A stretch of 64,000 nt of DNA from Bacteroidales bacterium. Its GTDB lineage: Bacteria > Bacteroidota > Bacteroidia > Bacteroidales > UBA3824. Location: contig JAFPYT010000071.1 in the NCBI GenBank assembly GCA_017394445.1, positions 25,005 through 89,004 on the forward strand, read 5' to 3'. The notes beneath the pieces were generated by a model. It had not been told where the DNA came from and did not search any database. It saw only the letters and a program-made list of their open reading frames with translations. Below, in pieces: positions 14,189 to 34,737 of the stretch (the first letter of the stretch is position 1; every line of letters starts with the position of its first letter). Both the position numbers and the translations under genes were made by a program.

Positions 14189-14248
14189 AGAGACGTGCCA
14201 AGGCGCGTCTCTATTTTCAATATAATGAGACGCACCATGGCACGTCTC
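14189..14248 (+). repeat. Two tandem GAGACG...CGTCTC hairpins (terminator/attenuator-like) between cluster genes 3 and 4
   Basis: AGAGACGtGCCaaGGCgCGTCTCT (14189-14212) is followed by ATTTTC. GAGACGcaCCatGGcaCGTCTC lies at 14227-14248. The two share outer arms but differ in the centre. Confidence 0.65.
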
Positions 14249-14283
14249 TACATTTAAAACAACCTTATTTGAATTAAATAATT

Positions 14284-16005: not shown

Positions 16006-16008
16006 ACG

Positions 16009-16611: not shown

Positions 16612-18167
16612 TACAATTCTTTTCTAAGGCGTGCTACAAGTATGTTCATCTGTTCGCGATATTTTGCCACAGTGCGTCGTGCAATCTGATAACCGCGTTG
16701 TTGGAGAATCTTGGCGAGTTTTTCGTCGGTAAGGGGCTGACGCTTGCTCTCGTTGTCGATGCACTCTTTGAGTATCTTCTTGATTTCGCGGGTAGAAACC
16801 TCATCGCCGTCGGTGGTCTGCATTCCTTCGGAAAAGAAAAATTTCAACGGGAAAATACCAAAGTGAGTTTGAATATACTTGCTGTTTGCCACACGCGAAA
16901 TGGTGGAAATGTCGAAACCTGTGGCGTCGGCTATGGTTTTGAGAATCATTGGCTTCAACTTAGTTTCGTCGCCATCTTCAAAATACTCTTTTTGATAGTC
17001 GAGGATAGCCTGCATTGTTATCATAAGTGTATTCTGACGCTGCTTAATAGCCTCGATAAACCATTTTGCGCTGTCGAGTTTCTGTTTTACAAAAAGTAAA
17101 GTTTCCTTATCTTTTTTATTACCCTTCGACTTACCAACGCTGTCAATCATATCGGCATAGGTGCGGTTGATACGCAGTTCGGGAACGTTTTTAGAATTAA
17201 GATGGAGAATAAAATCGCCGTCGTGATCTTCCAAAATAAAGTCGGGAATGATATGCTGAGTGCTTTTTGAGAGTTGCGGCGCAAAAATACTTCCCGGTTT
17301 GGGATTCAAACGTGTAATATCCTCAACAGCCTGTTTCAACTGTTTTTCGGTAATGTCTGTTTTTGAGAGAATCTTGTCGTAATGCTTTTTAGAAAATTCT
17401 TCAAAAAACTCTTTGAGTATAAGATATTCAAATTTGAGAATGGTTTTGTCGCCCTTTTGCGAGCGGTAGTTGCGCATAACTTGCAACATAAGGCATTCGC
17501 GCAAATCACGTGCGCCCACACCTGCGGGGTCAAAATCTTGAATAATAGTGAGAATTTTCAGAAGTTCCTTTTCGGTGGTTTCGTATCCAGCCGTAAATGC
17601 AATATCGTCAACAATGTTTTCAATATCGCGGCGCAGATAACCGTCCTCGTCAATATTGCCGATGATATATTCTGCAAGCAGTTGCTCATCCTCGTTCATT
17701 ACACCGAGACCGAGTTGCGAAAGCAGATACTCGTGGAGCGAATTACCCGAAGAATAAGGAATGTCGGAGCGGCGGTCATCGTCGTCGTCGCTGTAATTAT
17801 TTGAGTTTAGGCGGTAGTTTGGAGTGTCATCGTCTTCAAGATAATCCTCCACGGTAAACTCCTCGTCGCTCTGAGTTTTTTTAAACTCGTCGTCGTTGTA
17901 ATCGTCGTTGATATCGCGCTCTGGTTCATCGTATTCAGGACCATCGAGAGAATCATCGTCGCCTTCGTGGTCGGAGGAATAATCGTCGGTGCTGCGGGTG
18001 TTATCGTCCATATCCTCGCCGCCCTCTTCGAGCACAGGATTCTCCTCAATCTCGCGTTTGATTCGCTGCTCTAACTGTATAGTAGGTATCTCCAACAGTT
18101 TTATCAACTGTATTTGTTGCGGCGAAAGTTTCTGCAACAGTTTCTGTTGAAGTTTCTGATTAAGCAT
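16611..18167 (-). CDS. rpoN: RNA polymerase sigma-54 factor
   Basis: The N-terminus is MLNQKLQQKLLQKLSPQQIQLIKLLEIPTIQLEQRIKREIEENPVLEE, followed by an acidic region II. The C-terminal RpoN box is ARRTVAKYREQMNI. I prefer ATG 18167 over the track start at 18197. Confidence 0.9.
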   Translation of the reverse strand: MLNQKLQQKLLQKLSPQQIQLIKLLEIPTIQLEQRIKREIEENPVLEEGGEDMDDNTRSTDDYSSDHEGDDDSLDGPEYDEPERDINDDYNDDEFKKTQSDEEFTVEDYLEDDDTPNYRLNSNNYSDDDDDRRSDIPYSSGNSLHEYLLSQLGLGVMNEDEQLLAEYIIGNIDEDGYLRRDIENIVDDIAFTAGYETTEKELLKILTIIQDFDPAGVGARDLRECLMLQVMRNYRSQKGDKTILKFEYLILKEFFEEFSKKHYDKILSKTDITEKQLKQAVEDITRLNPKPGSIFAPQLSKSTQHIIPDFILEDHDGDFILHLNSKNVPELRINRTYADMIDSVGKSKGNKKDKETLLFVKQKLDSAKWFIEAIKQRQNTLMITMQAILDYQKEYFEDGDETKLKPMILKTIADATGFDISTISRVANSKYIQTHFGIFPLKFFFSEGMQTTDGDEVSTREIKKILKECIDNESKRQPLTDEKLAKILQQRGYQIARRTVAKYREQMNILVARLRKEL

Positions 18168-18255
18168 AATATTTCGGTTATTAATTTTTAATAACACAAA
18201 AATAAGGAATAATCTTTAATGTTGGTATATTTTATGCAACAATTTTTTCTTTTTT

Positions 18256-19284
18256 TTAAAACTTGGTCTCCGAAGTTACCCTAAACACGGCTGTTGTCTT
18301 AGAGCCACGTTTATAAAATTCGCAGAGCCAACCACGCTGCAAAAATTTTTCGCGAAGAGTTTCGGCAGAAGTTTCGGTGGTGAATGAAACAATATTGGCG
18401 CAAGGTTTTTCGGGATTGAAGCCCATTTCGCGGAGAGTGTCGTAAAGGCGGAGAACGTTTTCGCAGAGGGCATCGCGCTCATCATCAGAATAATCAATAA
18501 ACGTTTGAAGGTCGAAGGCGGCAGTGGCAAGAGTTCCACGCTGAACACTTACCGAATATCTAAGCGATACAGAACGGCGGCGAAGGAGTTCTATCAAAGT
18601 GGAATCGCCACAGATAAACGCTCCTACTGAGGCTTTGAGAGTGGATTGAAGGTTAACGATTTTTAAATCGGCAAAACCACGAATGCCGCAATGCTCGTCG
18701 CTACCACGTCCGTTTTTACCACAGGCGAGAAAACCGAAACTATCGTCTACCACCACCAAAGCGTTGTATTTTTCTGCCAAAAGTTTTATGGCGTTGAGAT
18801 TGGCACATTGCCCCGAATCGCAAAAAATACCGTCGGTAACTATCATCCTGATTCTCCGCATTTGTGATAGTTTCAATTTATCTTCAAGTTTAGCCATATC
18901 GTTGTGTCCAAACCGTAGTTTTTCGGCAGCAGAAAGACGTATACCACGCATCAAAGAGGGATTGCAATATTCGTCGTAAATAATGGCGTCGGTATCGTTC
19001 AAGAGGTTTGCGGCAAAATCGGCAGTAATAGCCTCGTAAGATGGAAACACCAATATTTCAGGAACTTGAAGAAAATCACAAACTACGGATTCAAACTCCT
19101 TTTGCTCTTTGGTAACACCGCACGAATAGGTGTTGAAAATGGTTTGGAAGCCACCCATTACACCAGTGTTAGAAAAATTAATAATTGATGTATTATCAAA
19201 GTCGAAAACCATATCAGATGGTCGCGATATGGCTTTCGACATTACAAGTTCTTCTTCAAAAAACTGACGGCTGTTTGAATCCAT
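18256..19284 (-). CDS. Alpha-oxoamine-synthase-like (KBL/AONS/SPT family, fold-type I PLP) protein, short and apparently divergent at PLP-contact residues
   Basis: The Lys motif STLKASVGAF is family-like, and VVVDDSFGF and DEYCNPSLMRGIRLS align by eye to D(E/D)AH and NHAS...RLS. At 342 aa it is shorter than typical members. Confidence 0.55.
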   Translation of the reverse strand: MDSNSRQFFEEELVMSKAISRPSDMVFDFDNTSIINFSNTGVMGGFQTIFNTYSCGVTKEQKEFESVVCDFLQVPEILVFPSYEAITADFAANLLNDTDAIIYDEYCNPSLMRGIRLSAAEKLRFGHNDMAKLEDKLKLSQMRRIRMIVTDGIFCDSGQCANLNAIKLLAEKYNALVVVDDSFGFLACGKNGRGSDEHCGIRGFADLKIVNLQSTLKASVGAFICGDSTLIELLRRRSVSLRYSVSVQRGTLATAAFDLQTFIDYSDDERDALCENVLRLYDTLREMGFNPEKPCANIVSFTTETSAETLREKFLQRGWLCEFYKRGSKTTAVFRVTSETKF

Positions 19285-19301
19285 AGTTTAAATAATGATG
19301 G

Positions 19302-20243
19302 TTATTTTCGCTTATAATAAGTTTTTACTCCTGTGCTACATTCGCGGCAATTGCCGGTATACTTGTAAGTGATTTCATCGGTGTCGGACGAATTATCCTC
19401 TTTATAGTTACTTTTAGTAACAGATTTAATCAAACGTCCGGCATTGTCGTATTCGTAAGTAGAATTAGAGGTCATAGCCGTATTCTCGTAAATTTGTTTT
19501 GACAATGTTCCATCGGCATTATACTCATTAGTAGTGGTTTCGGCAACTTCCCATTTTCCATTTTTGGCTTTACGCTTTGTTTCGGAACTCTTTACAAGAT
19601 ATTTACCACCTATCGAAACATAAGATATGCGAGTTTCTGATAAGCCCTCTTCCTGAGAATTTACAACTATAAGAGTGTCATTATTATTTGCGTCAAAATA
19701 TTTCTCGGTTATAGTTTTTTTGGGCTCGCTCTCCATCATCGAAAGAATACGGGTTTCGGTACTTTTGTTACCCTCGTATTTGGTTGTGGAGGTCTCCTCG
19801 CCGCCGTCGGCACCGTAATAGGTTTCTACAAGACGGTTTTGCGAATCATAGGTATAAGTGTCGGTGGTTTCAATTTCAGAATCGCTGATAGGGTCGTAAT
19901 AAACGTAAGACGTGAGGTTGCCATTGTCGTCGTAGTTATAGTTGACAATGCATCCGCAACGGTTTTCCTCGTAATAATCGGCGAATTTTTTGGTAATTCT
20001 GCCATTGGCATCGTATTCCAAACGGTAAGAAGTGTCGCCATTGCTTTGAATTTCGCAAAGCGGTTTTTCCCAATCAATTCCGTCGTCAATGGGCTGGGCG
20101 GGTTGCGGTTCGGGTTGAGTTTCGGTAACGGCAGATGCAGTGGAATCAACATTCTGAGCGTTTTGATTGTTACCATTGGATGCGCATCCTGCCAAAACTG
20201 CAAGCGATGCCAATGATAAAATAGTTAGATAATGGTTTTTCAT
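19302..20243 (-). CDS. YD-repeat-containing lipoprotein, paralog 1 of 3
   Basis: The lipobox signal is MKNHYLTILSLASLAVLAGC. YD-like repeats include YEYDANGRITK, YNYDDNGNLTS, YTYDSQNRLVE and YEYDNAGRLIK. Confidence 0.75.
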   Translation of the reverse strand: MKNHYLTILSLASLAVLAGCASNGNNQNAQNVDSTASAVTETQPEPQPAQPIDDGIDWEKPLCEIQSNGDTSYRLEYDANGRITKKFADYYEENRCGCIVNYNYDDNGNLTSYVYYDPISDSEIETTDTYTYDSQNRLVETYYGADGGEETSTTKYEGNKSTETRILSMMESEPKKTITEKYFDANNNDTLIVVNSQEEGLSETRISYVSIGGKYLVKSSETKRKAKNGKWEVAETTTNEYNADGTLSKQIYENTAMTSNSTYEYDNAGRLIKSVTKSNYKEDNSSDTDEITYKYTGNCRECSTGVKTYYKRK

Positions 20244-20288
20244 TGTAAATGACAGTTTTAATTAATGATATGTAAAAGATTGAATTAC

Positions 20289-21140
20289 TTATTTTTTTGC
20301 ATAGTATGTTTTATATCCGTTGTCCTCGATTTTGCAGTTGCCATCGTAAGAATAAGTGTAAGTACTGGTCCTGGCGGGATCGCCATCGCCATAATCACTA
20401 ACACAAATACTTTTGGTCAACCTGCCGTATTGGTCGTATTCGTTATCCTTTTTAAAAGAAACAAATTTTTGTCCATCTTTGGTCTCCTTGTTGGTAATCG
20501 ATGATTTTAAAACCTTTTTACCGTTGATGGTGACGTATGTAAAGCGAGTGGTATAGATGTCGGGCTTGACAGTGTAGTCGGGTTCGGTCTCGTCAGCTCT
20601 GCGAACCAACTGCGATTTGTCTATCTCCAAAGTATCGTTTCCGTCGGCATCAAAATAGGTTTCAATAACGTCTTTATAGATCTCCTCCGAATATGATTCT
20701 GACTCAGTGATTTTTTTGTTGCCTTCATAGCGGTATGTGGAGGTTACATCGGATGATAGGTCGTGTGTTTTGTAGGCAATAACACGGTTTTGCGAATCGA
20801 ATTGTTTAGAATAACTTCCGATTTCCAGATCTTCGGAAACACAAGAAGTGTCGTTACCGGCGGCATCGTAATAATAAGTAGAATACGACTCCTCACTGTT
20901 ATCAGAATAGTAAGAGACCTTTACAAGTTTGCCGGAAGCATTGTATTGATACACTGTGGATGTATCTCCCATTTTGTCAAGAGAATAAAGCGGTTTTTCC
21001 CAATCGATACCGTCGTCAACGGGCTGGGCGGGTTGCTGTTCAGTGTCATTCTGAGCGTTTTGATTGTTACCATTGGATGCGCATCCTGCCAAAACTGCAA
21101 GCGATGCCAATGATAAAATAGTTAGATAATGATTTTTCAT
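20289..21140 (-). CDS. YD-repeat-containing lipoprotein, paralog 2 of 3
   Basis: The signal peptide and lipobox are identical to paralog 1. Other features are YQYNASGKLVK and FDSQNRVIAY, and the C-terminus GYKTYYAKK is shared with paralog 3. Confidence 0.75.
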   Translation of the reverse strand: MKNHYLTILSLASLAVLAGCASNGNNQNAQNDTEQQPAQPVDDGIDWEKPLYSLDKMGDTSTVYQYNASGKLVKVSYYSDNSEESYSTYYYDAAGNDTSCVSEDLEIGSYSKQFDSQNRVIAYKTHDLSSDVTSTYRYEGNKKITESESYSEEIYKDVIETYFDADGNDTLEIDKSQLVRRADETEPDYTVKPDIYTTRFTYVTINGKKVLKSSITNKETKDGQKFVSFKKDNEYDQYGRLTKSICVSDYGDGDPARTSTYTYSYDGNCKIEDNGYKTYYAKK

Positions 21141-21185
21141 TGTAAATAACAGTTTTAATTAATGATATGTAAAAGATTGAATTAC

Positions 21186-22076
21186 TTATTTTTTGGCATA
21201 GTATGTTTTATAACCGTAGGAATCGGTTTTGCAGTTGCCATCGTAAGAATAAGTGTAAGTATCGGTAGTGGCAGGATCGCCGTTGCCCTGATCCGAAACA
21301 CAAATATTTTTGGTCAACCTGCCGTATTGGTCGTATTCGTTATCCTCCTCAGAAAAAACAAATTTTTTCCCATCTTTGGTCTCCTTGTTGGTAACCGATG
21401 ATTTTAAAACCCTCTTGCCGTTGATGGTGACGTAGGTATTGCGGGTGGTAAAAATATCGGGCTTAACAGAGTAGTCGGGGTCGGTATCGGACGCTTCGCG
21501 AACCAACTGCGATTTATTTATAACCAAAGTATCGTTTCCATCGGCATCAAAATAGGTTTCAATAACTTCTTTATAGATACACTCCGAAAGGGATGATTCT
21601 GACTCAGTGATTTTTTTGTTGCCCTCATAGCGGTATGTAGCGGATTCTGAATCAGATTCGCCATCCATTTCGTAGGCAATAACACGGTTTTGCGAATCGA
21701 ATTTTTTTGAAAAACCTCCGCAGGGCAATTCCTGACTTTCGTCTACGAAAAATGAAACACAAGAAGTGTCGTTACCGGCGGCATCGTAATAATATTTACT
21801 TCCCGACATTAAATGTTTTTCGTAATAGTTACTGTGCTTAACAAGTTTGCCGGCAGCATTGTATTGATACACATCGGATGTATCTCCCTTTTCGTCAAGC
21901 GAATAAAGTGGTTTTTCCCAATCGATACCGTCGTCTAATACCTGAGATTCTGATTTAGTTTCAGTGGCGGCGGAGGCAGTTGAATCTACATTCTGAGCGT
22001 TTTGATTTGAATTGTTTGATGCGCATCCTGCCAAAACAGCCGATGCACACAAAATTGTTAAATAGTTGATTTTCAT
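21186..22076 (-). CDS. YD-repeat-containing lipoprotein, paralog 3 of 3
   Basis: The lipobox signal is MKINYLTILCASAVLAGC. It is collinear with paralog 2 over most of its length (YQYNAAGKLVK, FDSQNRVIAYE, ...YGYKTYYAKK). Confidence 0.75.
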   Translation of the reverse strand: MKINYLTILCASAVLAGCASNNSNQNAQNVDSTASAATETKSESQVLDDGIDWEKPLYSLDEKGDTSDVYQYNAAGKLVKHSNYYEKHLMSGSKYYYDAAGNDTSCVSFFVDESQELPCGGFSKKFDSQNRVIAYEMDGESDSESATYRYEGNKKITESESSLSECIYKEVIETYFDADGNDTLVINKSQLVREASDTDPDYSVKPDIFTTRNTYVTINGKRVLKSSVTNKETKDGKKFVFSEEDNEYDQYGRLTKNICVSDQGNGDPATTDTYTYSYDGNCKTDSYGYKTYYAKK

Positions 22077-22111
22077 AATTATAAAAAATTAATTGATTAA
22101 ATAATACAGGG

Positions 22112-22119
22112 CAAAGGTA
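22112..22119 (-). promoter_or_regulatory. Bacteroidota -7 promoter box (TACCTTTG on the minus strand) for the lipoprotein array
   Basis: The reverse complement of CAAAGGTA lies 36 nt upstream of ATG 22076. I saw no comparable box in the two 45-nt spacers between paralogs. Confidence 0.4.
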
Positions 22120-22150
22120 AAAAAATTAATCTACATATTATATTAATTCG

Positions 22151-22158
22151 TAAATTTG
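22151..22158 (+). promoter_or_regulatory. Bacteroidota -7 promoter box (TAAATTTG) for pyrH
   Basis: Lies 33 nt upstream of ATG 22191 and overlaps or precedes the track's TTG start (22161), so ATG 22191 is preferred. Confidence 0.4.
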
Positions 22159-22190
22159 CATTGAATCTAAAACTTATAAACACAGCACAA

Positions 22191-22898
22191 ATGGTAAAAT
22201 ACAAACGCATATTATTGAAACTCAGCGGAGAAGCACTTGCCGGCGAAGATCATTACGGCATCAACGCCTCTACGCTCGAAGAATTTGGAAAAGAAATTTT
22301 GGAACTTACCAACGATGGCGTACAAGTGGGAATAGTTGTGGGCGGAGGAAACATTTTCCGCGGACTCACCGGCACAAGCAAGGGCATTGAACGCACCAAG
22401 GGCGACAGTATGGGAATGCTTGCCACCACTATCAACGCCATTGCTATTCAAAGCGAAATAGAGGCTCTTGGCGGAAAAGCAAAAGTGCTAACGTCCACAT
22501 TGATGGAACCTTACGCCGAAAGATTTTCAAGAAACCGCGCCATTCACGCATTAGAAAAAGGACACGTGGTAATTTTCTCAGGCGGAACAGGTAATCCATA
22601 CTTTACTACCGACAGCGCAGCAGCCCTCCGTGCAGTTGAAATCAATGCCGACATCCTTATCAAAGGCACCAAGGTAGACGGCATTTACGACAAAGACCCA
22701 ATGAAATATCCAGACGCTGTAAAATTCAACGAAATATCTTACGACGAAACTATCAGCCGCAAACTTAAAGTAATGGACCTCACAGCATTTGCACTGTGCA
22801 GCGAAAACAAAATGCCGATTATGGTTTTTGATATGACTAAAAAAGGCAACTTGAAAAAAGTAATAAACGGCGAAAAAATTGGAACTTTGGTAAAATAA
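22191..22898 (+). CDS. pyrH: UMP kinase
   Basis: Motifs: MVKYKRILLKLSGEAL, GIVVGGGNIFRG, and FSGGTGNPYFTTDSAAALRA. Confidence 0.9.
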   Translation: MVKYKRILLKLSGEALAGEDHYGINASTLEEFGKEILELTNDGVQVGIVVGGGNIFRGLTGTSKGIERTKGDSMGMLATTINAIAIQSEIEALGGKAKVLTSTLMEPYAERFSRNRAIHALEKGHVVIFSGGTGNPYFTTDSAAALRAVEINADILIKGTKVDGIYDKDPMKYPDAVKFNEISYDETISRKLKVMDLTAFALCSENKMPIMVFDMTKKGNLKKVINGEKIGTLVK

Positions 22899-22931
22899 TT
22901 GTAGCAAATAAATAACACATTTGCTAAAAAG

Positions 22932-23975
22932 ATGAGATACCTCGATCACAAAAAGACGGCTGAAATTATCCGCCGAATACTTAAAGAGAACCGCGTAGAC
23001 CAAGAATCTATCGACCATTTGACCGAAAGCATTATCGATGCATCGCTCAAAGGTATTGATACGCACGGTCTTGCGCTGTTTCCGCATTACTTAGAAGGTT
23101 TTCAGTTGGGCAGAATAAACCGCAAACCGCAATTCAGAATTATCAAAGACAGCGGCTCTGCCAAACTTATCGACGCCGATGGCGCAATAGGACACCACGC
23201 AGGACGTTTCGCAATGGATTTCTGCATAGATATGGCTTCAAAAAACGGCTCAGGATGCTGCGCGGTAAAGAACTCGTCGCATTTTGGCGCGGCAGAATAT
23301 TTCACCATCTACGCCGCCAAGCACAATATGCTCGGATTCGCTTTCACCAATACAAACTCTCTTGTAAAGGCGTTCAACGCCGTAGAGCCTATGTTTGGCA
23401 CAAATCCGATTTGTTTTGCGTGTCCCATCGAGGGCGAAGAACCTCTCAGCCTTGATATGGCAACAAGCGTAATCTCTTGGAATCACGTGCGTAACTATAA
23501 GGAAGCGGGACTAACACTTGAAGACGGCTGCGCCTACGATGCAGAAGGTCATTTCACCACCGACCCTCACGCCGCTAAATGTGTCCGCCCGATTGGAGAT
23601 TACAAAGGATATGGTCTTGGAATGATGGTAGAGATTTTGTGTAGTGTGCTCACAGGCAGCGACTTAGGCAAAGACCTTATGCCAATGTTCCATTCTGATA
23701 TGACCAAAAAACGTGGTATCTCGCACTTTTTTCACGCAATAGACATCAGCAAATTTACCAAAGTGAGCGATTTTGCCAAACGTATGAAGACTTTGGCAGA
23801 GTTTATCCGCTCAATGCGTCCGCTCGAAGGCAAAGAGGTGATGATACCCGGCGACCCCGAAAAACGCCGCAAAGCCGAACGCCTAAAAACTGGTATCCCT
23901 ATGACCGACAATGTATTTGCCGAGTTTATAGCCATTAGCAAAGATTTTGAAGAAGCGGTGATAAGGGAGGATTAA
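22932..23975 (+). CDS. Ldh_2 family (malate/L-lactate/sulfolactate dehydrogenase type 2) oxidoreductase
   Basis: Motifs: SLKGIDTHGLALFPHYLEG, SSHFGAAEYF and FGTNPICFACP. Its stop overlaps the stop of the convergent helicase gene by 4 nt. Confidence 0.75.
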   Translation: MRYLDHKKTAEIIRRILKENRVDQESIDHLTESIIDASLKGIDTHGLALFPHYLEGFQLGRINRKPQFRIIKDSGSAKLIDADGAIGHHAGRFAMDFCIDMASKNGSGCCAVKNSSHFGAAEYFTIYAAKHNMLGFAFTNTNSLVKAFNAVEPMFGTNPICFACPIEGEEPLSLDMATSVISWNHVRNYKEAGLTLEDGCAYDAEGHFTTDPHAAKCVRPIGDYKGYGLGMMVEILCSVLTGSDLGKDLMPMFHSDMTKKRGISHFFHAIDISKFTKVSDFAKRMKTLAEFIRSMRPLEGKEVMIPGDPEKRRKAERLKTGIPMTDNVFAEFIAISKDFEEAVIRED

Positions 23976-26212
23976 ATCACACTCCCCCTCCCCCATTGCA
24001 ACACTCTTTCTTTCATACCTTTAATATCGAGCACACCGTAGGCGAAACCTTTTTTGATGAGTTCTTCGGGCACATAGATGTCGTATTTTTCAAAAATGGG
24101 ATTTTCATTCGGATAGACGAGCGCAAGGGGAGAAAAATCTACCTGCGCCTCCTCGGTGGTGATTTGATAAAACTCCTCAGCAGAGGTGCGCATAGTAAAC
24201 TGCATATAGTAAGGTCGGCACGGACTAAGTCCCTTAATACCAAGCCGTGCGCCGCAACGTATTTTCAAAAATCGCTCCAAGGCAATAAAAGCGTAGGTGC
24301 CGAGCCACGGAAACAAAGCCCACATACTGCCACCAAGATTAATGAGCGGATTATGAGCCAATCCCGACTTTTGAAACAATTCTCGTGCGTCGCGCAGACG
24401 GAAAACTGCATTTCGCATAAGGTAGCGGTATGATTCTGAGCCGTTTAGCACCGAATGCATTTTTTCAAGAATTCGGGTATGAATATCGCCCGCGCAATCG
24501 CCAAAATATGCAGGAACACGTCCCTTAACCAATGTGCAGTAAACCTCGTGACGATTGTGGTCAACGCTGTCCACAGCCCACACACGACCCGCAATGGCAA
24601 TCTTCTCTCCCACTGGCGGCGGCTTAACTATTGTGCCAAGTTCCTGAGAATCACTACGAACAGTATATTCCAAATTTTCTTGAAACACAGCGTAAAACTT
24701 GTAGTTGTTGACCACTCGTTCGCCGGTAAGACCCGTAATCAAACCTCCATTTTCGGTGCGTACAATATGGTCGGTTTTTAAAAGATGGCGCAAAAGTATG
24801 CGGTAATCGTCTTGCGAAATGGTTTTGAAAACGCTGAGAGTGAGGATACGCGAAGCGAGTTCGGCAGCGGTCATTTCGCCACACGAAGCCAAAGTGCTCA
24901 TAGTCTGGTGATAAAGCAGGCTAAACGGCAGACGACCTGTGCGTGGCGGCTCTACAAAACGTTCCTCTATGTATAACTGTATCAGCGCGATAGTCTGAAT
25001 CAAATACCACGGAATATTGTCGGGCAGCATAGCACGCGATTCGGGATGCTCCTCACGCATAACAAAGTGCATTTCAGAGGGGTTTCCACGGCGACCTGTG
25101 CGACCGAGACGTTGCAGAAATCCCGAAACAGTAAACGGTGCGTCGATATGAAACGCACGCTCCAAACGTCCGATGTCGATACCAAGTTCCAAAGTGGCAG
25201 TGGCGCATACCGACATCAGCGATTCATCGTCTTTCATATCCTCCTCGGCACTCTCGCGATATGATACAGAGAGATTTCCGTGATGAATAAGAAAACGATC
25301 GGGTTCGCCGTTTACCTCGCAATATTGGCGAAGTTGCTGGCAAACACTTTCGCACTCTTCGCGCGAATTGGTAAAAATCAAGCACTTGGCATCTTTGGTG
25401 TGTTCAAAAATATAACCTATACCTGGGTCGGCAGCCTTGGGAGCAGTATCAGTGGGCGCATCGGGCACAGGCGTAGAGATTTGCTCAGTTTTATCGTCTG
25501 ACGCTTGTGGTGCAGTGTTAAAGAAGTGCTCCACAGATAGCCTCCAACGGTCTTTCGCCCCTTCAATTTTTGGAATAACAGTTTGGTGACCGCTTCCCGA
25601 AGAAAGGAAACGCCCTGCCTCAACGGGATTGCCTATTGTGGCAGAGAGGCCAATACGGCGGGGGTTGCAATCGGCAATAGAGCAGAGCCGCTGAATAAGG
25701 CAAAAAGTCTGATATCCTCTATCGCCCCGCAATAAAGAGTGAATTTCGTCGATAACTATAAACCTAAGGTCGCAAAATAGCGATGGAATCATTGCGTGCT
25801 TGGTAATCAACAGTGCTTCAAGCGATTCGGGAGTAATCTGCAACACACCTGCGGGATGGTTTAGCAGTTTTCGTTTTTTGCTTTGCGACACATCGCCGTG
25901 CCAACGAGTAACGGGTATGGCCGCCTCTTGACAAAGTTCTTCAAGCCTACCGAATTGGTCGTTGATCAATGCTTTAAGGGGTGCTATATAAAGTATTCCA
26001 ACAGATTTAGAAGGGTCTTCGTCTAAGAGGGTCAGCATAGGGAAAAACGCAGCCTCGGTTTTGCCCGAGGCGGTAGAGGCGCACAGCAGCACATCGGCGT
26101 TTGTGGTAAAGATAGTCTCACCAGCCGCATTCTGCACCGCCCTAAGCGTCTGCCACCCATTGCGGTAAATATAATCCTGAATAAACGGCGAATATCGGTT
26201 GAAGACGTCCAT
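23972..26212 (-). CDS. Lhr-like DEAD/DExH-box superfamily-2 helicase (Shango SngC-like / BrxHI-like)
   Basis: Motif I is CASTASGKTEAAF, motif II VIDEIHSL, motif III SATIGN and motif VI QRLGRTGRRG. A ~350-aa Lhr-type C-terminal extension follows. Confidence 0.85.
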   Translation of the reverse strand: MDVFNRYSPFIQDYIYRNGWQTLRAVQNAAGETIFTTNADVLLCASTASGKTEAAFFPMLTLLDEDPSKSVGILYIAPLKALINDQFGRLEELCQEAAIPVTRWHGDVSQSKKRKLLNHPAGVLQITPESLEALLITKHAMIPSLFCDLRFIVIDEIHSLLRGDRGYQTFCLIQRLCSIADCNPRRIGLSATIGNPVEAGRFLSSGSGHQTVIPKIEGAKDRWRLSVEHFFNTAPQASDDKTEQISTPVPDAPTDTAPKAADPGIGYIFEHTKDAKCLIFTNSREECESVCQQLRQYCEVNGEPDRFLIHHGNLSVSYRESAEEDMKDDESLMSVCATATLELGIDIGRLERAFHIDAPFTVSGFLQRLGRTGRRGNPSEMHFVMREEHPESRAMLPDNIPWYLIQTIALIQLYIEERFVEPPRTGRLPFSLLYHQTMSTLASCGEMTAAELASRILTLSVFKTISQDDYRILLRHLLKTDHIVRTENGGLITGLTGERVVNNYKFYAVFQENLEYTVRSDSQELGTIVKPPPVGEKIAIAGRVWAVDSVDHNRHEVYCTLVKGRVPAYFGDCAGDIHTRILEKMHSVLNGSESYRYLMRNAVFRLRDARELFQKSGLAHNPLINLGGSMWALFPWLGTYAFIALERFLKIRCGARLGIKGLSPCRPYYMQFTMRTSAEEFYQITTEEAQVDFSPLALVYPNENPIFEKYDIYVPEELIKKGFAYGVLDIKGMKERVLQWGRGSVI

Positions 26213-26224
26213 AGTTAGAAATTT

Positions 26225-27550
26225 TTACACCTCAAACTCAGCAAACTCCTCTCCTCTTTCATCCGATACTGCCTCGGATTTGGCGAAAGTGAAGTCGCCG
26301 GAGGTGAGGATATCGGTAAGTTTGAGCGTGGGGTTTTGGTACAGTAAATCAGAAAGTTCTATAAAATCGCGGATAACTTCGCGAGGAGTGATGTTTTGAT
26401 CGGCACCAATGCGCGAAAACTCTGTTTTTACGAAAGTTACCAAATCGTCGGTGGTAAGGCGGGTGGTGTAATTGTAAAGTCCGGCGTGCATATCGCGGAG
26501 TTTTTCGCACAGAACAAGCATCTCCTCGGCAGAAAGCGGGTCTAAGCGGATAATCGGCGCAAGAAGATCACGTGTGCCGGGTTTTGAAAAACGACCCTCG
26601 GCAAGTCGCGAACGGAGAGCCTCGTAACTATACACGCCACGTCGCTTATCCTCAACGGTTTGCGGAGTTGCACCCATTATTATGCCAAGATATTTAGCCT
26701 TGCCTTGCAAAGTATCGTTATACATTGTGAGCATTTTTTCGTAATTGTACTGACGGCTAATAGATTGCTGAATCTTGTAGATATTCACAAGTTCGTCGAT
26801 CATCACCATCAAACCTGTATAACCCGCAAGGCGGAAAAAATTTGCAAAGAGTTTAAGATAGTCGTACCAATCGTCGTCGGTAATGATGATACTTATGCCG
26901 AGTTCTTCCTTGGCTTCACGTTTCTGCGCGTATTCACCACGAAACCAACGTGTTACCTTCGCTTTTGTGGTATCGTCGCCATCTAAATATGCGTGGTAAT
27001 ATGCTGAGAGAAGTTTTCCAAACTCAAAACCGTGCACAAGTTCGCCAAGCGACGATGTAACGGCAAAAATTCTGCGGTCAACCTCTTTGGCGAGTTCGGG
27101 ATTATTGATATCCAAACCTATTTCCTGTACCGCAGCACTCTGTACTCCCGAAATCCAACGGTCGAGAACCAATGTTAGCGCACCACCTTCGGGTTTTGTT
27201 TTGGTAGAAAGGTTTGAAATAAGTTCGCGATAAGTAGCAAGACCCTGACCGCGTGTACCTTGCAAACGGCGTTCGGGTGAAAGGTCGGCATCAGCCACCA
27301 CAAAACCCTTGTCCATCACATAGTTGCGTATGGTTTGTAAAAGAAAACTCTTGCCCGAACCATATTTGCCCACAATAAAACGAAACGATGCTCCGCCTTC
27401 TGAAATAATATCCACATCGTGAAGAAGTGCGGCTATCTCGTTTTTGCGACCTACTGCAATGTAAGGCAGACCAATACGCGGCACAACACCGCCTTTGAGC
27501 GAGTTGAGCACAGTTTGCGCTATGCGTCGGGGTATTTTTACCTGTTCCAT
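26225..27550 (-). CDS. DUF2791 / BrxD-like P-loop ATPase (Shango SngB-like)
   Basis: Walker A is GKYGSGKSFLL and Walker B is LMVMIDELVN. The N-terminus IAQTVLNSLKGGVVPRIGLPYIAVGR is typical of the BrxD/DUF2791 family. Confidence 0.75.
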   Translation of the reverse strand: MEQVKIPRRIAQTVLNSLKGGVVPRIGLPYIAVGRKNEIAALLHDVDIISEGGASFRFIVGKYGSGKSFLLQTIRNYVMDKGFVVADADLSPERRLQGTRGQGLATYRELISNLSTKTKPEGGALTLVLDRWISGVQSAAVQEIGLDINNPELAKEVDRRIFAVTSSLGELVHGFEFGKLLSAYYHAYLDGDDTTKAKVTRWFRGEYAQKREAKEELGISIIITDDDWYDYLKLFANFFRLAGYTGLMVMIDELVNIYKIQQSISRQYNYEKMLTMYNDTLQGKAKYLGIIMGATPQTVEDKRRGVYSYEALRSRLAEGRFSKPGTRDLLAPIIRLDPLSAEEMLVLCEKLRDMHAGLYNYTTRLTTDDLVTFVKTEFSRIGADQNITPREVIRDFIELSDLLYQNPTLKLTDILTSGDFTFAKSEAVSDERGEEFAEFEV

Positions 27551-27606
27551 AAAAAATTGATTTCTGAGTAATGCGTGGCAAAAATAATAAAAATGCCGGA
27601 TAATGA

Positions 27607-29025
27607 CTACGACAACAGCAAATTCTTTAAATCTTCTACGTAATCATCTATTAATGTGATAGTTAACCCATCACAGTCAACCACATTGTCGGCAAATTCA
27701 TCAAAATACATCTCGTTAATCTTATCCGCTAAAACAGAGGGCATAAGGTGATGTGTTTTAATAATTTCGCTAACAGATGAATTTTGCAAAAGGGCTATGA
27801 GAATTTGATTTTCGATAGATTGCACGGGGGCGATTTCGTTGGGTAGAGACGGTGTGCACACCGTCTCTACATTTATGGGCGTGGAAATATCCATATCCAT
27901 TACATCATCCTCGGTTAATAGGCTTTCGCGGGTTTCGGCAGAATCGGTGCGTATTTGGTCTAAGGATGAGAGGTTTACCGACACTTGCGGACGTGATTGA
28001 AATTCGCAATAGCGTATAGCCTTGTCGATACCTTCAAAAAATGGCTGATACGCCTCCATCTCTTTCACCTTGCTGCCTGTGCGAAAATACTGACGAAGTT
28101 TGTAATCAACTGCACCAATGTAATTTACCAACATACGTTTTTGCGGATAGGCAAAATAGTAAAACTTCTGATACCATTCGCCGCGACGAAAAAGGTAAAT
28201 CAATGTGGGATATAATTCGTAAATAGCATCGTCGGTTTTAGCCGCAGCATAGTAAATAGCATTGGCAAAAGGTTGCCAACTTCGGGTAACTGGTTCGCCA
28301 AAAATATTGTTAAACAGTTCCTTAGTCAAATATCGCCAAACGCCTACAAAATATTTTTTGCCGTTTTCGCCCTGCTTTGTAAACACAGGCGATTTTGTGA
28401 TTTTTTTGGCAGAAAGGAGTTCAAAAGCCGCTAAAATCTCATCATCGGTGGCATTGTCGGGATTATGCAGTAGCGATAGCGCGCGGTGATTATCATTATT
28501 GTCGGTAGAATATTTTTGCAGCGTTTCTTTGGGAAGATTGTTAACAATGCACAAATCGCACGCCCAATGGTTCAGATAGTTAACCACACGGCGTGCATCG
28601 TAACTTTCGCCCGAATATGCGTCGCGGATTTGGTCTATCTTGCTGAGCGACTCTTGTGGCGAATTTACACCAATGCCATTGATAAGTTCGTAAATATAAA
28701 GGTAGAGATACGACAGCGACGTAGGTTTAAACACACCCTTGCGAACATCGGTGCGCCAAGTAAAATATGTGCGCAACTGACTCACATTCATATCGTGATA
28801 GGTGGGGAAATAATGCTGAAAATGAACGCTCACCGTGGCATTATCCTCAAAATTTTCCATAAACTTGCCCTGACGGTAAAAGTTTTTGGCTTGCAACAGA
28901 GGGTCGCCACCGCCATACTCATACATCTGCCGCATTTTTGAAATCATCGGCGGCACGCCAGGAATATCGCTCGCACGCATTACACCGGGTATAATAGGAG
29001 TATCTTTAAAAACCTTCTCGTCCAT
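27607..29025 (-). CDS. TerB-N + TerB-C domain protein (Shango SngA-like)
   Basis: The N-terminal region YFPTYHDMNVSQLRTYFTWRTDVRKG....YLYLYIYELINGIG is TerB-N-like. The C-terminal region LIALLQNSSVSEIIKTHHLMPSVLADKINEMYFDEFADNVVDCDG is TerB-C-like. Confidence 0.7.
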   Translation of the reverse strand: MDEKVFKDTPIIPGVMRASDIPGVPPMISKMRQMYEYGGGDPLLQAKNFYRQGKFMENFEDNATVSVHFQHYFPTYHDMNVSQLRTYFTWRTDVRKGVFKPTSLSYLYLYIYELINGIGVNSPQESLSKIDQIRDAYSGESYDARRVVNYLNHWACDLCIVNNLPKETLQKYSTDNNDNHRALSLLHNPDNATDDEILAAFELLSAKKITKSPVFTKQGENGKKYFVGVWRYLTKELFNNIFGEPVTRSWQPFANAIYYAAAKTDDAIYELYPTLIYLFRRGEWYQKFYYFAYPQKRMLVNYIGAVDYKLRQYFRTGSKVKEMEAYQPFFEGIDKAIRYCEFQSRPQVSVNLSSLDQIRTDSAETRESLLTEDDVMDMDISTPINVETVCTPSLPNEIAPVQSIENQILIALLQNSSVSEIIKTHHLMPSVLADKINEMYFDEFADNVVDCDGLTITLIDDYVEDLKNLLLS

Positions 29026-29061
29026 AAAAAAGCAAAAAAATGTGTGCCGCTAAGATAGAAA

Positions 29062-30864
29062 TTATCTGTTAAAAACCCGCATAAAACACTCCTTGCAATC
29101 GAATTTTAGTGCGAATGAGCCGTAAGAACTTACTAAGCGGTATTCGTCGCATTTCCACTTATCGGTCATAACACCTTTATTTTTGGGACAATAACCCAAT
29201 TCGCGACGTATACAGTAGCGAGTGGTCATAAGTTCAAGACCTTTGGTAGAGTTTTGGAGTTCAAATGCCTGCTGAGTAACGTTACAGCCGTGTTTTTTGT
29301 AAAAATCCTTAGCCAGACGGTTGGAAACATTGAGCCTATATCCGCCTTCGGTTTCAAAATATGGAGCATTGCCCGACGGTTTGGGCGAATCTTTTGGATG
29401 AAAAGTTTTAATACGCTTTTGTTCAAGCATTTGCAAAACATTGCGACGGGCTTCGTTTATAACAGAGTTTGGGATAAAAGGTGATTCGTCAAAATCAAAC
29501 GTAATTCGCTTACATTCAAACTTTTCGCCACATTTGCTTAGCGAATTGGTGATACTATCAAATGCCCGCTCTTGGTTGTCGGCTCGCTGCAATTGAAACT
29601 GTGTAAAACACTCACATTCAATATTATCTTCATCAAGAGCAATTATTGTAAAGCCATTATCCGAAAGCGTTACGGTAAACTCCACGGCAACTTTGCGGGT
29701 GGTTTTGGTGTTGTCGAGTTTTTGTTGAAACTTGATATCGAGATTGCGGTAAATATCTGTGCCAGTGACAATTTTCTCTTTTAAATTGGCAGTAATAATG
29801 CCGTTCTCTATTTTCTCTACACGAAAACCGTACATTGCGCCATTAAACACGCAGCACAATCCATCACCATTTGAAATCACCTCATCAGTCTTGATTTTCA
29901 AATTGTTACCTCTTACCATAACCACCTTACCCAAATATTCACCCGAAGATTTGGGACTAATATGGTTAGCCATTTTATTAGGCTCAACTGCAAAATAATC
30001 AGTGAATTTGCGGTTAAAAACCTTCTGCGGCGAGGGTGTAAAATCAAAATAGCACCGTCCCGATGAAGGTTTACGCACTTTGCCGTTTAAAATATTGTCA
30101 ATCAGGTTTCTATAATGCACTGTGATATTTGCCACGTAAGATTTATCCTTTAATCTGCCCTCAATTTTTAGAGAATCTACACCAGCAGAGTACATCTCAG
30201 CAATATGCGAAGTCATATTTAAATCTCTGAGCGACAATAGATAAGAATCTTTTATCAAAACCTCTCCCCTACTATTAAGCAAATCGTATTTCAAGCGGCA
30301 CGCCTGCGCACATTCGCCACGGTTGGCACTACGTCCGCCGATAGCCGCACTCATATAGCATTGTCCGCTTAGCGAAACGCACAACGCACCGTGGATAAAG
30401 CACTCTATTTCAGCATTTATGCTCTTGCGAATCTCTTTAATCCGCTCCAAAGGAGTTTCTCGGGCAAGCACTATGCGTTTAAAACCAATCTCATCAAAAA
30501 ACATAATCCGCTGTAAATCAAAATTATTCATCTGTGTGCTTGCGTGGAGTTCTATCGGCGGAATATCCATTTCTAATATTCCCAAATCTTGAACAATAAG
30601 CGCATCCACGCCAATATTGTAAAGGTTGCGAATAAGTTTATTTACGATAGGCAATTCATTGTCGTAGAGAATTGTATTGAGCGTTACATAAACCTTTGCT
30701 TTATAGAAATGAGCATAGGTTACAAGTTTTTCTATATCCTGAATAGAATTGCCCGCAGCCTTGCGAGCGGAAAAGTCGTTTGCACCAATATACACAGCAT
30801 CAGCGCCACAATTTATAGCGGCAATGGCTGTTTCAAGATTTTTTGCGGGAGATAGAAGTTCCAT
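29062..30864 (-). CDS. Peptidase U32 family protein (long two-module form)
   Basis: Starts MELLSPAKNLETAIAAINCGADAVYIGANDFSARKAA, and also contains GRSANRGECAQACR. Its ATG overlaps the upstream stop in TAATG. Confidence 0.85.
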   Translation of the reverse strand: MELLSPAKNLETAIAAINCGADAVYIGANDFSARKAAGNSIQDIEKLVTYAHFYKAKVYVTLNTILYDNELPIVNKLIRNLYNIGVDALIVQDLGILEMDIPPIELHASTQMNNFDLQRIMFFDEIGFKRIVLARETPLERIKEIRKSINAEIECFIHGALCVSLSGQCYMSAAIGGRSANRGECAQACRLKYDLLNSRGEVLIKDSYLLSLRDLNMTSHIAEMYSAGVDSLKIEGRLKDKSYVANITVHYRNLIDNILNGKVRKPSSGRCYFDFTPSPQKVFNRKFTDYFAVEPNKMANHISPKSSGEYLGKVVMVRGNNLKIKTDEVISNGDGLCCVFNGAMYGFRVEKIENGIITANLKEKIVTGTDIYRNLDIKFQQKLDNTKTTRKVAVEFTVTLSDNGFTIIALDEDNIECECFTQFQLQRADNQERAFDSITNSLSKCGEKFECKRITFDFDESPFIPNSVINEARRNVLQMLEQKRIKTFHPKDSPKPSGNAPYFETEGGYRLNVSNRLAKDFYKKHGCNVTQQAFELQNSTKGLELMTTRYCIRRELGYCPKNKGVMTDKWKCDEYRLVSSYGSFALKFDCKECFMRVFNR

Positions 30865-33800
30865 TATTGCTTAATTGAAAGACCTACAACAGTAATATCG
30901 TCGCGCTGCGGCTGACCGTCCATAAAGGCGTTTAGTTCGGCAGAAAGTAGATTGCCCGTATTAGCCACCGAATCGTTGCGGTGCTGCGTTACAAAACGTA
31001 TAAACCTCTCTGTACCAAAACGTTTGCGCTGAGGATTATTTTGATCTACAAGTCCATCGGTTATCATAAAGAGTTTGTCGCCCGGACGGAAAAGGAATTG
31101 ATGCTCTTCAAAATCGTTGTTGATAACGGTTTCGTCGGTGAGACCAAGATGACGGTGCACACCCTTGATACGCTGCATTTCGTCGGTGGTATGGTCGTAG
31201 TAGAATATCGAAGAGCCTGTGCCGCAGAATGTTACATTATATCCGCCGTCAATTTTTACAAAGCGGCATAGGCGGACTTCCATACCGTCGTAGTTTTGGT
31301 TACGTTCTTGTTTAAGCACATTAATAAGTCCTTGACTTAGGTTTTCTAAAATCTGTTTTGGCTGCGTAATATCCTGAATCATAATAATTTCGTTGAGCAG
31401 GTTGTAGCCAATCAAACTCATAAACGCTCCAGGAACACCGTGACCAGTGCAGTCTGCCACCACAAATATCAACGAACCGTCGGGCAAAGGTTCAAACCAA
31501 TAAAAGTCACCCGAAACAATATCCTTAGGCATATAAATTACAAAATGCTCAAAATATTGCGAAATGCTCTCATCTAAAGGTAATATAGAGTGCTGCATCT
31601 GCTGAGCGTAGTGGAGACTATTGGTAATGGCGCTGTTTTGAACCTCGATTTTTTTGTAGCCTTTTTCAAGTTCAGAATTTTTCATAAAGAGTTGCTCTTT
31701 CTGCATCTCTATCTGCAATTGGTTCTCTTGCAACTGCATAAACGCCTCGGTGAGTTGCGTAGCCTGACGGCTACCCTCCTCTTGAGCACGTTTTAGCATA
31801 GTGATGTCGGTTTCGGTGAGAATCCAGTTGCAGAGGTTCCCATTATCGTCGAAAACGGTGTCTAACGATGCCTGAACCCAATTGACACTATCGTAGAAGC
31901 GGTGGCAGGTTTCGTATGTAACATTTTGACTGCTCTGCCGTGCAAGTTGTATCAGTTCTTGATTCTTTTTGTCAGACGAAAGGTAAGACTCAAAATAATT
32001 GCGTCCGTGGATATAGAGAAATTCATCAAACGAGCAGCCGTAAATATTTTTAAATGAATCGTTTGTCCATTGGATATTACCGTCCTTATCCATAATAATC
32101 ACCGAATTGGTAGAACGAGTAGCCACAAACGACATCTGACGGAGGCGTTCGTTCTGATCTTCAAGTTGTTGATTACGTTGCTGCAGCAAAGCCGAAAGGT
32201 TATTGGCCTTATTTTTCAACTTGGCAGTGCGACGGCGTATCAACAATGTAATCAACAAAGCACAAATAACCACATAAAGCAATATAGCCCAAATAGTTAG
32301 ATAAAACGGCGCAACAATCGTAAATTCAAACGAAGCCACCGACGATTCCACATTTTCGCAGTTTTTGGCCTTAACCTTAAACACATAGTGTCCAGGAGGT
32401 AGTTTGGTAAATTCCCTTACATTGGCGTGCGACCATTCGTTCCATCCGCTGTCGATACCTTCGAGTTTGTAACTATACACCATCGACTCAAGATTTTCAA
32501 ATGCCGAAGTTGAAAATGTGATGCGGATTTTATTGTTGTGATACTCACATTCAGCTTTGAAAATCGAATCAGAAGGGTTGCCCAAATCGTTGTAGGTGGT
32601 GTACACATTATAATTACGGTCGGCTGTGGCACTTTTAAAATATCTGTATCCTCGGTAAACCCTTTCGCCATTAAACGATACCGAATTGATAATGGTGTTG
32701 AAAGGTTGGCTTGCGGGATTAAACGATGTAGTATCTTTGATATCGCCCTTTACAAGTCCACGGTTTGTGGAATATAGCAACACAGAATCCAACACATTAA
32801 TATTATAAACCGTTTCTAAAGAGACTCTGAAATGTATAATCTCGTTTCGTTCGGGATGCGAGCGGTTGATACGGCGATTGCAAGACTGCGTAAAAACAAA
32901 AAACTCATCGGTAAGTTTGCTGTAAGCAAAATGATAAATCAATTCATCAGGGTCGAAACATTTATTAAGAGCTGTATCAGCCTCGAACACAAGCGGTTGC
33001 ATTGGATTTCCGATTTTTGCGCGTTTAAATTGACCATCGTTGATATATACCATATCATCTACCACCTCTACAGTAAGTTGGTTAAGATGTTCAAAACCGT
33101 AATTAGAGTCGATATACTCAGAATCAAAGTCGGTTAGAGTGTTACCCTTTGGCGTTAGCAACAAAATTCCGTCGGAAAGCGATGTGCACCAAAACGTGCC
33201 GTTGTTTGCAATTTTTAATTTAAACAGCGGACGATTTATTTGGCTGATACTACGCACATTAGTTACCGTAATTACTCCATTATTGACAACATAGTCGCAC
33301 ACCTTGAAACCTTCAAATCCAGTGATAAATAGTTTGCCGGGATAGAGAGGCGAAACAGCCGCTCCGTATGTGCGACCTGTATTAGCTATCTGAACAGCCT
33401 TGTCGGGGAAAACCTGATAAAGTCCTTCGGATGTACAGGCAATGGTAAGTCCCTCGATACCAACCAAATCCCAACAGAAATGCTGACCGTGTGTTACATT
33501 ATAAGGAATTGGGCGGAAACTCGAATTTTTGCCAGCTCCCTCGTGCGACGATACAAAAATCGACGACACTGTGCCCACATAATAGTAATTCTTGTCGGTA
33601 TGCGCACACAGCACCACGCTCGAAACTCCCTGATTAGCAAAGTAGAACACAAACGGTGAATTGAGTTCTATTTTTGAAATTCCTCCCGAATACGATGCCC
33701 AAAGATTGTTTTTTGAATCAAAAAACACATTAACTATATCGTTGACAGGCAGGTTGATATCCTTATCGATTTTTTGGAGATATTCGTAGCGGTTGGAATA

Positions 33801-34707: not shown

Positions 34708-34737
34708 GAAAAAAGCCTGAATTAACAGGCTTTTTTT
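34708..34737 (-). terminator. Rho-independent terminator downstream of frr (symmetrical, A-run/T-run flanked)
   Basis: AAAAAAGCCTG-AATTAA-CAGGCTTTTTTT. On the minus strand the hairpin is followed by TTTTT. Confidence 0.6.

Follow-up and report, generated by a model that had tools for sequence, protein, structure and literature searches.

Three co-oriented genes on the minus strand of a contig from an uncultured rumen Bacteroidales bacterium very probably form an intact, canonical operon of the antiphage system Shango. The operon would have entered the junction between a U32 peptidase gene and an Ldh_2 gene as a ~5.05-kb insertion in the ancestor of its clade, and would have been kept by selection since. 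The genes, sngA, sngB, and sngC, lie in a stretch of 64,000 nt (Bacteroidales bacterium, UBA3824; assembly GCA_017394445.1, contig JAFPYT010000071.1, positions 25,005-89,004 of the forward strand), which is referred to here as the window and whose numbering is used unless another locus is named. Shango consists of a TerB-like protein, an ATPase, and a DEAD/DEAH helicase, encoded in that order in Pseudomonas aeruginosa PA14 (PMC10250203). Reported protection was 10-100-fold for several Pseudomonas phages and ~10-fold in Escherichia coli (PMC10250203; Millman et al. 2022, bioRxiv 10.1101/2022.05.11.491447), and in the literature we found no paper that establishes its mechanism. As Shango itself is already catalogued and can be detected with standard tools, the locus is on its own an ordinary annotation result.

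Families were assigned by profile searches against Pfam, PADLOC-DB, and NCBIfam, the last of which contains no Shango model. Each protein matched its PADLOC Shango model from end to end: SngA with an E-value of 3.3e-70 (residues 25-469 against positions 68-526 of 528, with no next-best family), SngB with 3.1e-187 and 621 bits (residues 1-440 against 1-438 of 439), and SngC with 2.2e-274 and 911 bits (residues 3-735 against 5-715 of 720). The next-best PADLOC families scored far lower, namely BrxD for SngB (1.1e-46, 158 bits) and BrxHI for SngC (6.3e-116, 386 bits, aligned over SngC residues 1-658). Membership in Shango was judged by the three profiles together with adjacency and co-orientation of the genes, and all of these were found here, in the order A-B-C and with gaps of 56 nt (sngA-sngB) and 12 nt (sngB-sngC). 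The same order recurs in three Shango loci outside the clade, termed L026, L028 (Bacteroidota), and L031 (a plasmid of Clostridium estertheticum). A preliminary description of this DNA, made by reading the letters, had already called the triad Shango. It had reported three tightly packed minus-strand genes that begin 36 nt past the U32 stop and end in a 4-nt overlap with the convergent Ldh_2 gene (23972-23975), and had assigned TerB-N/TerB-C and DUF2791 domains to the first two products. The PADLOC matches and the published gene order bear out the name, the open reading frame coordinates agree with the layout, and Pfam TerB_N, TerB_C, and BrxC_BrxD were all matched.

Compared with the Shango loci of E. 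coli and P. aeruginosa PA14, the same three proteins are encoded here, in the same order and with intact catalytic motifs. The host differs, however, being an uncultured rumen Bacteroidales bacterium, and SngA is a short form of 472 aa that lacks an N-terminal extension. Moreover, the operon has housekeeping genes on either side and is shared by several species, in which it is fixed, rather than being found in a variable hotspot such as cDHS1. A neighborhood of TerB-N/TerB-C, DUF2791 ATPase, and superfamily 2 (SF2) helicase genes was reportedly predicted by Anantharaman, Iyer, and Aravind in 2012 by comparative genomics, with the same domain trio as the one described here. The locus does not resemble a tellurite-resistance (ter) operon: at E <= 0.01 only TerB_N and TerB_C were matched, without PF05099 TerB, and the ter genes TerZ/A/C/D/E were not found among the neighbors of the triad. 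A search against Rfam gave no match to an RNA family for the locus or its vicinity.

The history of the insertion can be read from related loci. Four of these (L001, L002, L004, and L007) come from rumen Bacteroidales metagenome-assembled genomes, each representing a different species in the Genome Taxonomy Database (GTDB), which were retrieved in a genome scan with U32. In the window and in these four, the site between U32 and Ldh_2 is occupied, U32 being followed immediately by sngA and, as far as the contigs reach, by the other two genes; in two further loci, L014 and L025, sngC stands beside Ldh_2 before the contig ends. All assessable close relatives, comprising at least 4 GTDB species, have the triad here. 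More distant relatives (L016-L019, L021, and L022) were obtained from a metagenome scan with Ldh_2, and their Ldh_2 and U32 proteins are 67-71% and 55-60% identical, respectively. All six keep the gene order pyrH>Ldh_2<U32, with only 7-357 nt between Ldh_2 and U32, and L021 and L022 also keep the sensor phosphatase gene next to U32; no Sng proteins were detectable in any of them. Together, the empty and occupied sites imply that the triad is an insertion of ~5.05 kb into a conserved junction, in one clade only. Universal presence at the locus, which the preliminary description had regarded as a sign of a core function, was thus not observed. The insertion was probably acquired by the ancestor of one clade of rumen Bacteroidales, of genus level, and appears to be ancient and clade-fixed rather than strain-variable.

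No direct repeats or att-like sites spanning the boundaries of the 5.05-kb insert were found, nor was an integrase. Elsewhere, 697 plasmids, of which 542 are conjugative, carry homologs of SngB; the majority are Klebsiella and Salmonella plasmids, with ~40% identity. A 76% identical copy is carried by the C. estertheticum megaplasmid pCF002-344 (from bovine faeces), beside a relaxase and an IS110 transposase. The phage genomes searched contained no SngB homolog. The triad has a GC content of 46% and the window one of 42.5%, a difference too small to be used as a sign of foreign origin.

Pairwise Nei-Gojobori estimates of the ratio of nonsynonymous to synonymous divergence (dN/dS) show purifying selection on all three sng genes (0.03-0.19; Table 1), which by that criterion are functional. 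The cassette has diverged along with its flanks, as its synonymous divergence (dS) is similar to theirs, with some mosaicism. Upstream of the cassette, the sensor-U32 region of L001 (6198-11803, compared with window 29062-34670) is a sharp mosaic: identity to the window is 76% for the sensor gene (dS 1.8) and 95% for the adjacent U32 (dS 0.2), indicating that a recombination breakpoint lies where the two genes meet.

Table 1. Coordinates of the Shango operon and its flanking genes in the window, with selection estimates where available.
Feature	Position	Strand	Description	dN/dS	dS to L007
Ldh_2 gene	22932-23975	+	347 aa; Pfam Ldh_2, 2.5e-104; downstream insertion boundary	0.01-0.06	1.03
sngC	23972-26212	-	746 aa; SF2 DExH helicase, SngC/BrxHI/Lhr-like group	0.03-0.07	1.04
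sngB	26225-27550	-	441 aa; BrxD-like ORC/Cdc6-type AAA+ ATPase	0.04-0.06	0.45
sngA-sngB spacer	27551-27606	-	56 nt; conserved core, exact -7 box		
sngA	27607-29025	-	472 aa; TerB_N + TerB_C	0.12-0.19	1.29
U32-sngA spacer	29026-29061	-	36 nt; upstream insertion boundary		
U32 gene	29062-30864	-	600 aa; Pfam Peptidase_U32 + DUF3656	0.10-0.14	0.78
Sensor phosphatase gene	30864-34670	-	Pfam Y_Y_Y + PAS + SpoIIE (PP2C)		
Host operon (sensor + U32), upstream of the triad	29062-34670	-	Pfam; stop/start overlap		

SngA evolves much faster than SngB and SngC. In the out-of-clade loci, SngA is only 39% (L026), 38% (L028), and 36% (L031) identical to that of the window, while the corresponding values are 77%, 80%, and 76% for SngB and 77%, 78%, and 75% for SngC. 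Synonymous sites are saturated in these comparisons (proportion of synonymous differences 0.76-0.89), so that the identity of SngB and SngC across phyla reflects constraint; recent horizontal transfer was rejected as its cause for the same reason (0.83-0.89). The dN of SngA is ~3.5 times that of SngB and SngC. The contrast extends to the database as a whole. Among the 120 best-scoring SngC homologs listed, all were at least 76% identical, with many at ~77% in different phyla, and those with a name belonged to Bacteroidales, Oscillospiraceae, Lachnospiraceae, and Anaerolineaceae. This asymmetry suggests that SngA may be the specificity or sensor subunit, and SngB and SngC the conserved motor.

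SngA matched TerB_N (4.4e-30, 105 bits) and TerB_C (7e-16, 59 bits), both above the cutoffs. Most SngA homologs are ~610 aa long and carry an N-terminal extension of ~130 residues that is missing in this clade; since forms of ~490 aa exist elsewhere too, the short SngA is a common variant. The AlphaFold 2 model of SngA (predicted local distance difference test score [pLDDT] 84, predicted template modeling score [pTM] 0.65) is mostly helical; residues 246-288 form a small beta-sheet, residues 378-401 are a disordered linker, and the C-terminus consists of a helix-helix-helix-strand-strand unit. Sequence searches of the PDB with SngA and SngB were unproductive, SngA having no match even at E <= 1, and a fold search with SngA against solved structures gave nothing at E <= 0.001. 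Weak fold matches of ~70 residues to the winged-helix DNA-binding domains of LysR proteins (E ~2, probability 0.6-0.7) were not relied on. Between the window and L007, SngA is 64% and SngB 97% identical. SngA varies most in the second half of TerB_N and in the linker, and the last ~60 codons of sngA are conserved, forming one tract with sngB.

No SngA homolog from outside the clade exceeds 45% identity. The closest, at 45%, is a 613-aa protein encoded at 8001-9842 of L029/L030 by an orphan TerB_N/TerB_C gene, which has no adjoining sngB or sngC and is instead found next to CotH and AAA_14/DUF4143 genes. Within sngA of the window, we also observed a perfect 28-nt palindrome, GTAGAGACGGTGTGCACACCGTCTCTAC (27843-27870), which encodes VETVCTPSL in the hypervariable, predicted-disordered linker. 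L004 retains a 20-nt core of it, L001 and L002 have imperfect versions, and L007 has none. In 5 kb, chance is unlikely to produce a perfect 14+14 palindrome.

SngB matched the Pfam family BrxC_BrxD (PF10923, the former DUF2791) with an E-value of 8.7e-164, and SngC matched DEAD (9.5e-29) and Helicase_C (4.2e-17). All motifs quoted in the preliminary description can be read in the translations. In SngB, these are Walker A (GKYGSGKS, with K67, within GKYGSGKSF) and Walker B (MVMIDE). In SngC, they are motifs I (TASGKTEA, K51), II (DEIH; D155, E156, and H158), III (SAT), and VI (QRLGRTGRR), which are invariant in the alignment of homologs. The NCBIfam BrxD equivalog NF033438 scored 159.9 bits on SngB against a cutoff of 350, and the Lhr-type model TIGR04121 scored 200.8 bits on SngC against a cutoff of 850. 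By sequence, the solved structures closest to SngC are those of Mycobacterium smegmatis Lhr (5v9x, 5.6e-30; 7lhl) and of MrfA (6znp). The profile alignment with 5v9x covers residues 27-214 and 309-375 only, corresponding to the two RecA domains.

The C-terminal half of SngC is less clear. For residues 390-746, Pfam returned only WH_Lhr, below threshold (15.4 bits, cutoff 27, E 0.012), and the DEAD_assoc profile did not match SngC. The AlphaFold model of SngC is of low confidence (pLDDT 56, pTM 0.38), because the retrievable homologs are all at least 76% identical and the alignment is therefore shallow. A fold search with this model returned 5v9x_A first (6e-14) and then MrfA, with a template modeling (TM) score of ~0.25; given this low score and the poor model, the fold search cannot settle the C-terminal architecture. 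Hence, of the earlier description of SngC as a DExH helicase with an Lhr-type C-terminus, the helicase part is upheld by the motifs and the DEAD and Helicase_C domains, but the C-terminal part is weakly supported by the profiles. By analogy with the homologous BrxHI, an Lhr-type C-terminal region is nonetheless plausible: BrxHI consists of an SF2 core followed by a winged helix-turn-helix, a HAS barrel, and an Lhr-homologous C-terminal domain (PMC12839542).

Both proteins have relatives in known systems. In a helicase phylogeny, SngC groups with BrxHI, DruE, and DpdJ in a possibly distinct, defense-associated SF2 clade (PMC12278908). BrxD is an AAA+ ATPase of the origin recognition complex (ORC)/Cdc6 type that may load or activate a helicase, and BrxD and BrxHI form a tightly linked dyad (PMC12839542). 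The dyad of type 2 bacteriophage exclusion (BREX/Pgl) systems and the SngB-SngC pair are homologous, an AAA+ ATPase and an SF2 helicase being tightly linked in both. Unlike type 2 BREX, however, the locus contains no PglX, PglZ, BrxC, or PglW, the partner is a TerB_N/TerB_C protein, and SngB stays below the BrxD equivalog cutoff. With Lhr/Lhr-core (5v9x, 7lhl) and MrfA (6znp), SngC shares the DExH motifs, and the likeness is demonstrable for RecA1 and RecA2 only; in addition, SngC is encoded with SngA and SngB rather than with a ligase or in a repair operon.

Several sibling loci carry additional cassettes at this site. In L002, a type II restriction-modification system, comprising a C-5 (Dcm) methyltransferase and an NgoBV-type endonuclease, lies between sngC and Ldh_2 (17394-19509), and two DUF3791 genes lie between sngB and sngC (14704-15170). 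L013, which is 96.6% identical to positions 12941-26218 of the window, contains a complete DUF3791-DUF3990-DUF3791 set (13284-14277), matching the PADLOC candidate system PDC-M13, directly upstream of sngC; the point of insertion is exactly the 12-nt sngB-sngC junction. Beyond it follow unrelated DNA and the contig end; neither sngA nor sngB was found in these last 2.9 kb, and this loss could be either a real rearrangement or an assembly break. In L025, a PIN_3 gene and a gene for an 80-aa protein are found between Ldh_2 and sngC (363-1030). The 3' junction of Ldh_2 holds different cassettes in different relatives, and the site behaves as a small defense island, or local hotspot, within the clade. 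The preliminary description had seen no recognizable island around the triad. This holds for the window, where no other defense genes were found at 16-44 kb and Shango stands solitary among housekeeping genes, but not for the siblings, in which restriction-modification, the PIN gene pair, and PDC-M13 have joined the site. In the distant relative L020, a gene after Ldh_2 (11425-12201) resembled, by eye and without a profile search, an IS200/RAYT-type transposase gene with GC-rich repeats.

Expression of the triad appears to be tied to the genes upstream. The stop codon of the sensor phosphatase gene overlaps the start of U32 (TAATG at 30864). Promoters were sought as exact matches to TAnnTTTG, the Bacteroidota -7 box; a sigma-70 promoter scan was discarded, as its counts equaled the shuffled expectation and the model is not applicable to Bacteroidota. 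The U32-sngA spacer reads ...CACATTTTTTTGCTTTTTTATG and, as had been noted before, contains no exact TAnnTTTG. No terminator-like hairpin was found between U32 and sngA either; one such site is present at 34708-34737, upstream of the sensor gene. The window, L001, L002, and L004 share one spacer sequence; in L007 the spacer measures only about 10 nt, which leaves no room for an sngA promoter there. The simplest reading is that sngA would be transcribed by read-through from the sensor/U32 operon, which is the likely source, or from a start inside U32. Within the triad, the sngA-sngB spacer contains an exact TAnnTTTG, TATTTTTG, at 27586-27579 of the minus strand, 29 nt before the sngB start, which the preliminary description had overlooked. 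A 35-nt core of this spacer, TTTTTATTATTTTTGCCACGCATTACTCAGAAATC, is the same in all five genomes compared (the window, L001, L002, L004, and L007), despite a synonymous divergence of 0.45-1.3 to L007 in the adjoining genes, and the box, which does not vary either, may be an internal promoter for sngB-sngC. The earlier statement that the triad has no promoter of its own thus fits sngA, given the short L007 spacer and the missing terminator, but may have to be amended for sngB.

Alternatively, the triad could have a promoter of its own that escaped detection and be transcribed independently of U32, its tight packing reflecting genome compaction. The lack of an exact box is weak evidence against this, since the leader of the sensor-U32 operon has no exact TAnnTTTG either, only near-matches. 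Candidates are available as well: 9 nt ahead of the ATG of sngA there is a near-match, TTTTTTTG, an exact TACGTTTG is found inside U32 about 470 nt upstream, and in the Bacteroidota Shango locus L028, TACTTTTG directly precedes sngA. However, L007 lacks the 26 nt that hold the near-match while its sngA is under purifying selection, and no terminator-like hairpin separates U32 from the triad. We therefore regard an independent promoter as unlikely, though as an alternative to be taken seriously next to read-through.

Two other explanations concern the nature of the triad itself. Its presence at one site in every assessable close relative, across at least 4 GTDB species, under strong purifying selection at dS of up to ~1.3, is also what a domesticated housekeeping module might show. 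An Lhr-like helicase, an AAA+ partner, and a TerB-type adaptor would then have taken on a core DNA/RNA repair or stress response function in this genus, co-expressed with the sensor/U32 operon and no longer mainly directed against phages. The operon-like junction without a terminator (with its 10-nt spacer in L007), the absence of other defense genes at 16-44 kb of the window, and the fact that the closest solved helicases, Lhr and MrfA, are repair enzymes would fit such a role. All three proteins match the Shango models best, however, and the site is empty in six more distant relatives. Moreover, sibling loci stack defense and toxin-antitoxin cassettes at the same spot, as expected of a defense locus, homologs are found on conjugative plasmids, and SngA evolves far faster than its partners, which is typical of host-parasite conflict. 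Taken together, we consider domestication quite improbable. A remnant of type 2 BREX (Pgl), in which BrxD and BrxHI were left after the loss of PglX, PglZ, BrxC, and PglW and the TerB gene is unrelated, is hardly credible. Although SngB and SngC do match BrxD (1e-46) and BrxHI (6e-116), PF10923 is the BrxC/BrxD family, and the two Brx proteins form a linked dyad in type 2 BREX (PMC12839542), the Sng models outscore the Brx models by 621 to 158 and 911 to 386 bits. SngB also reaches 159.9 bits with the NCBIfam BrxD equivalog, under its cutoff of 350, no PglX, PglZ, or BrxC gene flanks the triad among the neighbors at 16-44 kb, and the three-gene unit recurs alone in the unrelated contexts of L026, L028, and L031.

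Several points nevertheless weigh against reading the locus as a Shango operon that works as proposed here. Published antiphage activity is limited to the E. coli and P. aeruginosa homologs, and SngB is only ~40% identical to its enterobacterial plasmid-borne homologs. Fixation in several species without an integrase or flanking repeats is atypical of a mobile defense cassette, and could reflect domestication. No -33 TTTG accompanies the internal -7 box at the consensus spacing, and the box lies in a tract that is ~90% identical at the nucleotide level anyway, so its conservation is suggestive only. Finally, the division of labor outlined below is drawn from domain content and evolutionary rates alone.

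With these points in mind, we tentatively propose a sensor, a switch, and a motor as the working parts of an intact Shango operon, a scheme that, taken as a whole, is possible rather than probable. SngA, with TerB_N and TerB_C and no enzymatic domain, would be a fast-evolving sensor or specificity subunit, whose conserved C-terminus may dock onto the SngB-SngC machine. SngB, as a BrxD-like ATPase of the ORC/Cdc6 type, would act as an ATP-driven switch or loader, an idea that derives from the description of BrxD as a possible helicase loader in the BrxD-BrxHI dyad (PMC12839542). SngC, as a 3'-5' DExH translocase resembling Lhr and BrxHI, would be a motor on phage DNA or on RNA:DNA replication intermediates. 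As no nuclease, membrane, or toxin domain is encoded by the triad, interference might proceed by unwinding, by displacement, or by exposing DNA to host nucleases. sngA would be expressed by read-through from the sensor and U32 genes, and sngB-sngC may additionally use the conserved internal -7 box.

A more far-reaching version of this scheme is that in this clade Shango is wired into host signaling. The ratio of SngA, made only by sensor-operon read-through, to SngB-SngC, made from the internal promoter, would then set an immune threshold according to an environmental signal, and the junctions would serve as a landing pad for defense cassettes, even inside the operon, as with PDC-M13 between sngB and sngC. 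We consider this improbable.

The genes around the triad, at 16-44 kb of the window, include rpoN, an aminotransferase gene, lipoprotein genes, pyrH, Ldh_2, U32, the sensor phosphatase gene, and frr, among others. In bacteria, pyrH and frr usually adjoin. Here, pyrH (22161-22898) and frr (34773-35336) are on opposite strands and separated by ~12 kb that hold Ldh_2, Shango, U32, and the sensor phosphatase gene; the pyrH>Ldh_2<U32 order is also seen in relatives without Shango. Three tandem paralogous lipoprotein genes (19302-22076; 313, 283, and 296 aa) encode near-identical signal peptides and repetitive bodies rich in Y, D, and N; for the one at 21186-22076, the only one of the three that was tested, no Pfam match was obtained. 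A region of 34-35% GC (39108-43634), directly after tRNA-Leu(CAA), encodes a 1431-aa DUF285/leucine-rich repeat protein with a C-terminal sorting domain of the type IX secretion system, which may be a horizontally acquired surface protein. Lastly, a 109-nt Rfam tRNA match at 61110-61218 (46.9 bits), for which ARAGORN makes no call, could represent either a tRNA-like element or a tRNA that carries an insertion.

For the Shango family, the value of this locus lies in comparison, which offers three things that could help to solve the mechanism of the system. One is a natural pair of occupied and empty sites, with a cassette that has long been fixed. Another is the rate asymmetry, which makes SngA the candidate for specificity or sensing, and SngB and SngC the candidates for a constrained machine. 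In addition, the natural variants with small defense cassettes between sngB and sngC could tell whether co-translation or subunit stoichiometry matters.

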